From: Escherichia phage Eryne
Length of the DNA: 64,000 nucleotides
Sequence record: PQ529420
Direction: 5' to 3' (one strand)
In this document: positions 54,093-55,535 of the stretch, piece after piece
Numbering within the stretch: the first letter of the stretch is position 1
How the letters are laid out: each line of letters begins with the position of its first letter
Translations under genes and position numbers: made by a program
Notes under the pieces: generated by a model
Seen by the model: only the letters and a program-made list of their open reading frames with translations
What the model was told of the DNA's origin: nothing
Database searches by the model: none

Positions 54093-55177
54093 TAAAAGTC
54101 TAACTCCTCGTCATCACTTACATCTTTATTTGCTGAATTCAGTTTGTAAGCTGTAATTTGGATCTCCTGTGCTGCTGCTTGAATTTGATCTGGATTTAAC
54201 CAAACATCCATCCAAGGCAGTGGACTTTTCTTCGGTGCACGGAATTTGTGTTTCATTTTCAGTCTGCGATAGATAGGCGCAGCATTGAAGTAAACCCAAA
54301 GTTTGAACAACTCTGCGTTACCACCAACGATAATCCTTCCTTCACTAAACAGATAGTCACACCAATCTTCCTCTTGTCCAACTACCGTGTCAAGAATTTC
54401 TGTCAGAACGTCGATATTATCTTCGTATACTTTTCTCCAGACAGGATCTTTCAGCAGTGCATCAATAATAGCATAATCCATTTTAACGTGCAATAGTTCA
54501 TCCAACATAATTTTTTGAATGAGTTTAGCTGCACCTACAAACAGTTGCTGCTCTGCTAAGGCAAATGTTGCAGCAAAAGAGGATATGAATTGAATGCCTT
54601 CCAGACCGATAAGTGCAATCATGCCTTTCAGGATCAGTAGACGAAGGTTATCATCCTTCTCAATCAGACCTAGAGCATATTTATGTCCTGCCTCTGCCAG
54701 ATCACTCATTATCTCTTCAACTATACCCATCCTCTGGAAGATTCTTTCGTTCTCCATAATCTGATCGATAACTTCATTTGGATTAGGGATACACTGACGA
54801 ATAATTTCAGAATATGTCAAAGCGTGTAAAACTTCCATTTCTGATTGCTTCATCATCATTGCACATGCTTCGTTGTTGCTTAAAAATGGTGCAAACAAAG
54901 TGATGATTGATTTAGCAAGTGAATCATTTTCCCATTGGAAGGATAGGTTTTTGATCATAACATCATAGTTGCTTTTAGAACAAGCTACGAAATCTTTTCG
55001 TGTCTGATCTAAGTTTACTTCGTTTTCATCCCAATCTTGCTGTTTTTGTAGTTTGTACAGACGATGCATTTCTGGGTATGTTACATTAATAGAATCAAAA
55101 ATACCTAACTGTTCTCCCAAAAATACAGGGTAGAAACCTTCTTTGTAAGTGTCGTTGTATAAGTTAATTGCTGCCAT
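54092..55177 (-). CDS. nrdB: ribonucleotide reductase class Ia beta subunit
   Basis: Ferritin-like di-iron protein immediately downstream of nrdA; size and motif layout typical of NrdB. Confidence 0.8.
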   Translation of the reverse strand: MAAINLYNDTYKEGFYPVFLGEQLGIFDSINVTYPEMHRLYKLQKQQDWDENEVNLDQTRKDFVACSKSNYDVMIKNLSFQWENDSLAKSIITLFAPFLSNNEACAMMMKQSEMEVLHALTYSEIIRQCIPNPNEVIDQIMENERIFQRMGIVEEIMSDLAEAGHKYALGLIEKDDNLRLLILKGMIALIGLEGIQFISSFAATFALAEQQLFVGAAKLIQKIMLDELLHVKMDYAIIDALLKDPVWRKVYEDNIDVLTEILDTVVGQEEDWCDYLFSEGRIIVGGNAELFKLWVYFNAAPIYRRLKMKHKFRAPKKSPLPWMDVWLNPDQIQAAAQEIQITAYKLNSANKDVSDDEELDF

Positions 55178-55499
55178 TTAAATCCTCCACAATATCACAC
55201 ATTGCTTTTATTGTATCAATGTGTTCTCTCTCCATACCATCCTCTAGGTAAGCCTTCTCTAATGCGTCCCATACACTCTTTGTGAGTAGTATAGTAACCT
55301 CTCCCTCATACCTTGCTCTGGTTAAAGCATACCAGGTAGCTATGGGATCATTGGAAGCCCATATTTCAACACTGGAAAATTGAAAACCTGCAATATAATG
55401 ACAACACCAATCGAATGTAAAATCTTTACTATCTACCAGTGTATAATTTCCCCAGCGTCTTTGTGGTGTTGCTCCAGGTAATACAACTAATGTAGGCAT
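55164..55499 (-). CDS. hypothetical protein between nrdA and nrdB
   Basis: Start moved to MPTLVVLPG behind AAGGAGG; preceded by hairpin 55516-55531. Confidence 0.4.
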   Translation of the reverse strand: MPTLVVLPGATPQRRWGNYTLVDSKDFTFDWCCHYIAGFQFSSVEIWASNDPIATWYALTRARYEGEVTILLTKSVWDALEKAYLEDGMEREHIDTIKAMCDIVEDLNGSN

Positions 55500-55510
55500 A
55501 TTCCTCCTTA

Positions 55511-55535
55511 AGAAAGGGGGACAAAGCCCCCTAGT
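55511..55535 (-). terminator. terminator or attenuator hairpin after nrdA
   Basis: gggggacaaagccccc followed on minus strand by tttctt. Confidence 0.45.

Follow-up and report, generated by a model that had tools for sequence, protein, structure and literature searches.

A variable small gene and a conserved hairpin between nrdA and nrdB of Escherichia phage Eryne and its relatives

Analysis of a 64,000-nucleotide stretch of DNA from Escherichia phage Eryne (sequence record PQ529420; referred to here as the window) revealed that nrdA and nrdB, the genes for the two subunits of class Ia ribonucleotide reductase (RNR), are separated by a G/C-rich hairpin and by a small open reading frame (ORF) that we call ORF111. 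Comparison of this junction with those of related phages shows ORF111 to behave as an exchangeable cassette: between almost identical nrdA and nrdB genes there are deeply diverged alleles, a null allele and one tandem pair. The same comparison shows the hairpin to be a feature of the nrdA–nrdB junction older than ORF111. Overall, we lean towards the view that ORF111 is an accessory cassette gene whose product would bind a variable host or phage target, and not an RNR subunit. The structure and evolution of the gene stand on much firmer ground in this picture than the proposed function.

Layout and variation of the nrdA–nrdB junction

All elements of the junction lie on the minus strand, where they follow one another, 5′ to 3′, as nrdA, the G5/C5 hairpin, the sequence AAGGAGG, ORF111 and nrdB. 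The initial annotation of this DNA had drawn attention to an extra small gene and a hairpin between nrdA and nrdB, and each of these elements is found where it was placed. The conserved left flank is nrdA (55540–57801), whose 753-residue product, the class Ia RNR large subunit, matches Pfam Ribonuc_red_lgC (7e-99) as well as the lgN and ATP-cone domains and phrog_84, and carries the same annotation in relatives. The conserved right flank is nrdB (54092–55177), which encodes the 361-residue class Ia small subunit (Pfam Ribonuc_red_sm, 1.9e-33; phrog_86).

Between them, ORF111 occupies positions 55164–55499, with its ATG at 55499–55497 and its TAA at 55166–55164. It encodes 111 amino acids, the length of 112 given initially being the number of codons with the stop included. 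The Shine–Dalgarno sequence AAGGAGG (55503–55509), rightly described as a strong ribosome-binding site (RBS) at the outset, lies 3 nt 5′ of the ATG, a position common to all alleles. That of nrdB, GGAGGA (55183–55188), is embedded in the V-E-D codons of ORF111, where, together with the nrdB start, it delimits the cassette on the right, and the start of nrdB and the end of ORF111 share 14 nt (55164–55177). This overlap, with the RBS and start codon of nrdB contained in the last codons of ORF111, suggests translational coupling. A longer reading of 136 residues from an ATG at 55574, used in the phAPEC8 annotation, was rejected; it would cross the hairpin and the 3′ end of nrdA, and the homologues of ORF111 align from the ATG preceded by the RBS, not from the one upstream.

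Over the 4.3 kb around the locus, identity is 99.4% with Escherichia phage muut and with further genomes of Justusliebigvirus, a group of phi92-like myoviruses in the subfamily Stephanstirmvirinae. For the ORF111 protein itself, identity reaches 100% in several phages, among them JohannJBalmer (BASEL Bas62) and muut. Our comparison of junctions spans the Stephanstirmvirinae (phi92/phAPEC8-like phages) together with metagenomic loci, and four gene layouts are found. In the first, nrdA is followed by the hairpin, the ORF and nrdB; this is the arrangement in the window, alia, phAPEC8, ESCO13, Tr1, KP13-26 and FKP3 and in the metagenomic loci L008, L009, L018 and L019. The second, consisting of nrdA, the hairpin and nrdB with a spacer of 44–45 nt and no ORF, occurs in Schickermooser, ECO340P2 and Klebsiella phage 05F01, and an ORF-less junction used as a megablast query gave an unbroken 346-nt match in about 35 Phapecoctavirus records. 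The third layout, that of ESCO5, has a gene for an HNH endonuclease between nrdA and the hairpin, followed by the ORF and nrdB, while in the fourth, that of AV125, nrdA, the endonuclease gene, the hairpin and nrdB follow one another. A metagenome contig, SRR10989975_98887 (L017), carries a full copy of the ORF, then a truncated and diverged second copy (795–1037, 80 residues; profile E-value 8e-8, with phrog_17458 as its only PHROG match) and then nrdB.

Adjacency of nrdA and nrdB, initially taken to be the usual arrangement, is indeed found in the neighbouring Vequintavirinae (SSE121, KE22, NDO71 and rV5-like phages) but not in phage T4, in which the gap contains mobE, encoding a free-standing HNH homing endonuclease, together with nrdB.1 and the weak terminator of mobE (Wilson & Edgell 2009, PMC2790892; Edgell et al. 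2010, PMC2988022).

The ORF is uncoupled from the reductase. Schickermooser, which lacks it, and ESCO13, which has it, share 100% identity in NrdB and 98.9% in NrdA, and in the ORF-less group of about 35 Phapecoctavirus records NrdB is 99–100% identical to that of ORF carriers. ORF-plus and ORF-minus phages alike have been isolated on K-12 MG1655. Because near-identical reductases occur without the ORF and both types of phage were isolated on this strain, the comparison shows that neither the reductase nor growth on Escherichia coli K-12 requires ORF111.

Phages that both carry the ORF may possess very different versions of it. Between phAPEC8 and ESCO13, amino acid identity is 98.8% in NrdA and 99.4% in NrdB with 49% in the ORF, and between KP13-26 and FKP3 the corresponding values are 99.6%, 99.2% and 47%. 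The synonymous divergence (dS) of the first pair is 0.04 in nrdA, 1.41 in the ORF and 0.06 in nrdB, and that of the second pair is 0.10, 1.70 and 0.15, respectively. Since the synonymous sites of the ORF are saturated, the alleles have been replaced by recombination, which goes beyond mere fast evolution of the protein. In both pairs the ORF is the sole divergent island in 6.3 kb when these are scanned in segments of 100 nt, with a DNA identity of 53–63% compared with 87–100% elsewhere; all the other small hypothetical genes in the 6.3 kb stay within the latter range. At a resolution of 30 nt, the breakpoints are no more than about 30 nt away from the ends of the ORF: identity falls just past the hairpin or no further than about 30 nt from the nrdA stop codon, and about 15 nt upstream of the nrdB ATG it has recovered to about 100%. 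The boundaries of the cassette therefore coincide with short sequences kept in every lineage, the left one with the hairpin, the U-tract and the RBS, the right one with GTGGAGGAYTTAAATGGCAGC. In comparisons inside an allele class (window versus alia, phAPEC8 versus ESCO5), dS is similar in the ORF, nrdA and nrdB, and the ratio of non-synonymous to synonymous divergence (dN/dS, or omega) is 0.35–0.37 for the ORF versus 0.00–0.03 for nrdA and nrdB.

The HNH gene of the gap encodes 218–219 residues and matches phrog_953 (1.7e-56), with no match in Pfam. It is situated between the nrdA stop codon and the hairpin in ESCO5 (L014, 2949–3608) and AV125 (L015, 2626–3282), an insertion point different from that of the ORF, and it occurs with and without a member of the ORF111 family. 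In ESCO5 and AV125, nrdA is recoded over its final ~10 codons relative to phAPEC8, the picture expected of target-site immunity or of the co-conversion tract of a homing endonuclease. The gap may be a hotspot of recombination, at which double-strand-break repair triggered by endonucleases of this kind and short-homology recombination at the hairpin and RBS sequences would both contribute.

The ORF111 protein and its possible roles

ORF111 matches the profile of phrog_17458, a family of unknown function, over its full length (E-value 3.9e-62; residues 1–111 on positions 1–112 of 112), and the distant alleles P0017 and P0019 likewise match this family. In tblastn searches it was found in 79 phage records at 45–100% amino acid identity. 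Searches of protein sets of 5.8 billion and 1.8 billion sequences returned 12 and 10 matches, respectively, all of them from the same family, which added only a few metagenomic relatives, with identities as low as 26%, and a search of IMG/VR gave five further loci only. One candidate homologue, P0020 (1836 residues, E-value 4e-4, repetitive), was judged spurious. The length of the family members is held at 107–117 residues despite saturated synonymous divergence, and pairwise dN/dS is 0.14–0.37. ORF111 codes for a protein and is under purifying selection, so that the gene, whose conservation and coding signal were the point in doubt in the initial annotation, is real. That this selection extends over a deep divergence (saturated dS, omega about 0.2–0.35) implies a function of ORF111 at the protein level. 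Its GC content is 39.0%, compared with 37.3% for the window, and with respect to GC and GC3 it is typical of the genome, with no foreign composition seen in either measure; no paralogue was found within the window.

An AlphaFold2 model calculated from a 12-sequence alignment (pLDDT 89.8, pTM 0.82) predicts a small α/β fold with strands at residues 3–7, 14–16, 19–23, 43–46, 69–73 and 101–104, helices at residues 29–35, 52–60, 74–86 and 91–100, and a disordered tail. The protein is acidic, with an isoelectric point (pI) of 4.5 and a net charge of −8; among the alleles, net charge ranges from −9 to +2. Only M1, F27, W31, W47, R61 and W77 are invariant in a 21-sequence alignment. The cysteines vary in number from 1 to 4 and are not conserved, and the D23/K25 pair is lost in distant alleles. 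Because the invariant residues are few (F, W, W, R, W) and neither the cysteines nor D23/K25 are kept, we infer that ORF111 is a small, non-enzymatic, folded α/β binding module; it has the profile of neither a redox protein nor a nuclease.

Database searches are in keeping with an orphan. ORF111 had no match in Pfam, NCBIfam or PADLOC, and Pfam likewise gave none for 21 family members; searches of PDB sequences with the single protein and with the 21-sequence profile returned noise only. When the model was compared with the PDB using Foldseek, the best E-value was 0.2 with TM < 0.45, and the P-loop and Rossmann-like matches at this level (E-value 0.2) were treated as noise. No nuclease motif, domain or fold was detected in Pfam, NCBIfam, PHROG or PDB fold searches. 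Readings invited by local features of the protein fared no better: a PD-(D/E)xK nuclease based on 'VDSKDF' was rejected as phAPEC8, L008 and L009 have other residues in place of D23 and K25, a redox or metal site based on 'WCC' was rejected as the cysteines are not conserved, and DNA mimicry based on the pI of 4.5 is weakened by the L008 and L009 alleles, with pI values of 8.8 and 6.6, respectively.

The only structural relative of ORF111 is gp191 of Escherichia phage 4MG, which belongs to phrog_25840 (Foldseek E-value 3.6e-5, TM 0.57). ORF111 also has a weak profile match to this family (E-value 4e-4) with a common '[ST]-R-x-R' segment, and phrog_25840 is present in 21 Seunavirus, Mydovirus and related records. 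The two proteins are about 19% identical, and gp191 is the longer at 139 residues. Unlike that of ORF111, the gene for gp191 (L011, 16269–16688) lies in a group of small early genes, with 16 kb or more to the nearest RNR gene.

The most likely task of ORF111 would be to act on a variable factor of the host or of a competitor phage, in counter-defence or host take-over. Its gene, for which no separate conserved promoter was found, would be co-transcribed with the rest of the nrd operon and translated from its own strong RBS, with translation coupled to that of nrdB. A single short locus with several deeply diverged alleles and a null between nearly identical flanks, whose small, lineage-restricted and non-enzymatic product evolves faster than its neighbours, resembles the plastic regions of T4-like phages, which are hypervariable slots between conserved genes with genes for host interaction and anti-defence. 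The locus differs from these slots in that all its occupants except the HNH gene belong to one family.

Several observations weigh against a variable target of this kind. ORF111 resembles no described anti-defence protein, and similarity to known defence or anti-defence proteins was absent from PADLOC, PDB and BFVD fold searches, which included no dedicated anti-defence library; homology searches as a whole give ORF111 no function. The mosaic pattern could have arisen from homogenisation of the RNR flanks, for example by homing-endonuclease co-conversion, and not from selection on ORF111. Lastly, the family is found only in the nrdA–nrdB gap in every context examined, including alleles at 26–36% identity, and this strict position and the coupling layout fit an RNR-linked role of ORF111 equally well. 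A more elaborate form of the host- or phage-target reading, which we offer tentatively, has ORF111 as a family with a new fold whose diverged alleles and null are kept in balance, each neutralising or escaping another variant of host immunity or of a competitor phage; in a rarer version of this proposal, ORF111 would modulate RNR by mimicking the tail of NrdB.

That ORF111 is dedicated to RNR, as an accessory protein or regulator that binds NrdA or NrdB, tunes assembly, activity or cofactor maintenance and owes its joint synthesis with nrdB to this task, is in our judgement unlikely. Small proteins encoded in nrd operons provide a precedent, these being YfaE (a 2Fe–2S ferredoxin), NrdI (flavodoxin-like) and NrdH (glutaredoxin-like), and ORF111 shares with them its size, its place within the RNR operon and its probable co-expression with the subunits. 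It differs from them, however, in having no Pfam match to Fer2, Flavodoxin_NdrI or Glutaredoxin, no flavodoxin-like, thioredoxin-like (redoxin) or 2Fe–2S ferredoxin domain by sequence or fold and no Cys motif, and in being dispensable and evolutionarily uncoupled from the RNR genes. The strict position between nrdA and nrdB, held down to 26% identity, and the overlap of the ORF111 stop with the nrdB start, which suggests coupling, speak for a link to RNR, but the remote relative in phage 4MG stands well apart from the RNR genes.

Near its C-terminus ORF111 has an invariant acidic IVEDL, and in one version of the proposal the segment ...DIVEDL... would imitate the NrdB tail that docks on NrdA. 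This invariance is, however, in large part due to the nrdB Shine–Dalgarno sequence embedded there, and in the L009 protein IVEDL is lost (IAGEIRVSN) while the nrdB RBS is kept at the nucleotide level. Neither co-occurrence nor co-evolution with the RNR subunits is observed: the reductases of about 35 close relatives without the ORF are 99–100% identical to those of carriers, and alleles that are 47–49% identical to one another are paired with 99% identical reductases, so that there is no co-variation. The novel RNR accessory protein suggested initially is disfavoured on these grounds.

We consider it less probable still that ORF111 is selfish or hitch-hiking cargo, shuffled by homing-endonuclease gene conversion and of little or no benefit to the phage. 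The resemblance to T4 is evident, in that the same gap between the same two conserved genes holds an occupant that is present or absent among close relatives, that has no promoter of its own and that depends on upstream nrd transcription; moreover, an HNH gene uses the gap in Phapecoctavirus too. The HNH endonuclease of ESCO5 and AV125 lies in the gap occupied by ORF111, T4 mobE in that gap causes co-conversion of its flanks, and in a speculation by Dwivedi et al., the hypothetical genes that lie between those for RNR are endonucleases yet to be recognised. The presence/absence polymorphism and the sharp mosaic boundaries fit such a history; polymorphism of this sort between conserved genes is nevertheless not specific to endonucleases.

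ORF111 itself has no nuclease motif, nuclease fold or conserved catalytic-type residues, it is dissimilar to T4 mobE, nrdB.1, nrdA.1 and nrdA.2 and to the 'NrdA.1-like' protein of 4MG, and it has been under purifying selection over a very deep divergence. The HNH gene, in turn, inserts elsewhere, between the nrdA stop and the hairpin, and is found with or without the ORF. No group I intron or other RNA family was matched in Rfam at E ≤ 1 in the region 53800–58200, and nrdA and nrdB are intact and of full length, with ORF111 a separate cistron that has its own RBS, an arrangement that is not that of an intron or intein. The initial suggestion of a remnant of a mobile element or intron is therefore not supported for ORF111, but the biology of mobile elements does bear on the gap, which harbours a homing endonuclease in ESCO5 and AV125 and in which the ORF behaves as an exchangeable cassette.

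The intercistronic hairpin

The stem-loop A-GGGGG-CUUUGU-CCCCC-U (55515–55532, minus strand; about −10 kcal/mol) starts 7 nt past the stop codon of nrdA, and 15 nt lie between its end and the ORF111 start. Its stem is as described in the initial annotation, but the loop has six nucleotides (ACAAAG on the plus strand) and not five. A short U-rich tract follows at 55510–55514 (minus strand), the mRNA reading UUUCUU when counted from the stem-closing U at 55515; this tract is interrupted and weaker than the UUUAUUUU / UUUUUAUU tracts of relatives. The pattern G5-N3–8-C5 occurs once in the 64 kb, compared with an expectation of 0.01 from shuffled sequences, and the 91-nt context of the hairpin is not unusually stable relative to shuffles (z = 0.46).

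The hairpin was compared in 13 junctions representing all four gene layouts, with L017 as a fourteenth outside this set. A stem of 5–8 G/C base pairs, with a stability of −10 to −14 kcal/mol, is present in all 13. Eleven of these junctions have GGGGC/GCCCC; in the window and alia a shift of register gives GGGGG/CCCCC. The loops are UUCG, GAAA, UUCA, AAU or CUUUGU. C(UUCG)G and C(GAAA)G tetraloop hairpins occur in phage intercistronic regions, and the relatives that carry GGGGC-UUCG-GCCCC or GGGGC-GAAA-GCCCC followed by a U-tract conform to this type, whereas the window copy has a degenerate six-nucleotide loop and a short, interrupted tract. A U-rich tract follows the hairpin in 12 of the 13 junctions, the exception being L008. 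Because the stem hardly varies, covariation is uninformative; the only changes that speak for the structure are the register shift of the window hairpin and the compensatory C–G to A–U change of the L017 hairpin, GGGGA-GAAA-UCCCC. In every case the hairpin is immediately 5′ of the RBS of the next gene, be it the ORF or nrdB, and 3′ of nrdA or the HNH gene. Because it is present in all four layouts, we conclude that the hairpin belongs to the nrdA–nrdB gap and not to the insert.

An attenuator or riboswitch-like element specifically regulating ORF111, the first of the explanations offered initially, is highly improbable, for although the hairpin lies close upstream of the ORF111 start and its C-run or U-tract pairs alternatively with the RBS in minimum-free-energy folds, the same hairpin directly precedes nrdB where the ORF is lacking and comes after the HNH gene in other phages, Rfam gives no match, there is neither a leader peptide nor a conserved structure of another form, the fold of the context is no more stable than those of shuffles, and the pairing with the RBS is generic complementarity of U-rich and purine-rich sequence.

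A pattern scan made a terminator-like call at the hairpin on the minus strand, and the Schickermooser annotation contains an ARNOLD call. A GC-rich stem-loop followed by a U-tract, the description of an intrinsic terminator (PMC2988022), is what is seen here, with a short tract in the window. The hairpin is probably a leaky intrinsic terminator or else a stem-loop that stabilises the RNA at its 3′ end. The case for termination is weakened by the short U-tract of the window and by the L008 hairpin, which has none. At L008 (5957–6003), the most divergent of the ORF-bearing junctions, the structure is GAGGGGC-AAU-GCCCCUC (−13 kcal/mol) with no U-tract after it, which hints that what is conserved may be a role of the RNA hairpin itself, in stability or processing, rather than termination.

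A possible internal promoter for nrdB, TTTACA-18-TATATT (55421–55392) within ORF111, was dismissed because it is not kept from allele to allele, and the region shows no excess of promoter-like sites (17, compared with 18.5 expected). Because the spacers of ORF-less junctions are only 44–45 nt long and the ORF contains no conserved promoter, nrdB most likely relies on read-through, and termination at the hairpin is therefore probably partial. A σ70-like match, TTGACT-17-TAGTAT (58536–58564, minus strand), is located just upstream of the 136-residue gene that heads the run of genes for 136 and 86 residues, nrdA, ORF111 and nrdB, and is a candidate for the operon promoter, with the reservation that such sites are no more frequent in the region than expected.

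In T4, the weak terminator halts 30–50% of transcripts and is proposed to coordinate the synthesis of NrdA and NrdB (PMC2790892, PMC2988022). In both systems the gap holds a short hairpin with a GC stem, a tetraloop and a U-tract, which in T4 would balance nrdA and nrdB transcripts, and by analogy the hairpin described here would set the ratio of nrdA to downstream transcripts. The systems differ in that the T4 terminator is inside mobE and missing from phages without mobE, whereas here the hairpin is outside the ORF and kept in ORF-less phages, and in that T4 has a middle promoter for nrdB, whereas here no conserved internal promoter is seen.

Neighbouring genes and significance

Downstream of nrdB, positions 53550–53696 (minus strand) contain a 48-residue ORF with two CxxC pairs (CPVCGG...CWNCNG) and an acidic tail, annotated as hypothetical in relatives, which looks like a small zinc-ribbon protein. 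Further on, a 436-residue ORF at 51716–53026 (minus strand) consists of the N-terminal ~300 residues of RmlB (dTDP-glucose 4,6-dehydratase) fused to the C-terminal third of RmlA (glucose-1-phosphate thymidylyltransferase), which are encoded by separate genes in JohannJBalmer. Relative to that phage the fusion corresponds to a 557-bp deletion between 12-nt direct repeats, with the junction at ~52096–52107, and both enzymes are probably inactivated by it in the window phage. We also note some doubtful-looking host labels among the records retrieved. The entries MG065639, MG065645, MG065656, MG065689, MG065650, MG065682 and MG065659 are named 'Campylobacter phage', with Campylobacter jejuni as host, and are in this region 99% identical to Justusliebigvirus phages of E. 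coli or match Phapecoctavirus or rV5-like phages; the labels 'Acinetobacter phage ABPW7' and 'Serratia phage KKP_3264' raise a similar doubt over the host.

The presence of a gene between nrdA and nrdB in these phages is not new, since it is annotated in dozens of genomes and bears the label "hypothetical protein" in 79 phage records, those of Justusliebigvirus among them. Its behaviour as a cassette is new, and no earlier description of this behaviour or of the orphan fold was found in the literature searched. Within neighbourhoods of 6 kb that are otherwise 97–100% identical, ORF111 is the single locus at which there are either alleles with saturated dS or nothing, and the fold predicted with confidence for its product is related to that of no protein of known function. 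The analysis also corrects a natural misreading of the hairpin, which is part of the architecture of the nrd operon, parallel to the weak terminator of T4, and not a regulator of the insert.

Phage loci that behave in this way often encode factors that meet variable host defences. ORF111 is a cheap and well-defined target for functional screens, the identical protein being available in the BASEL phage Bas62 (JohannJBalmer). If it does serve in counter-defence, or as a mimic of the NrdB tail, the nrdA–nrdB gap of phi92-like phages would constitute a compact natural library for a new phage–host interaction.

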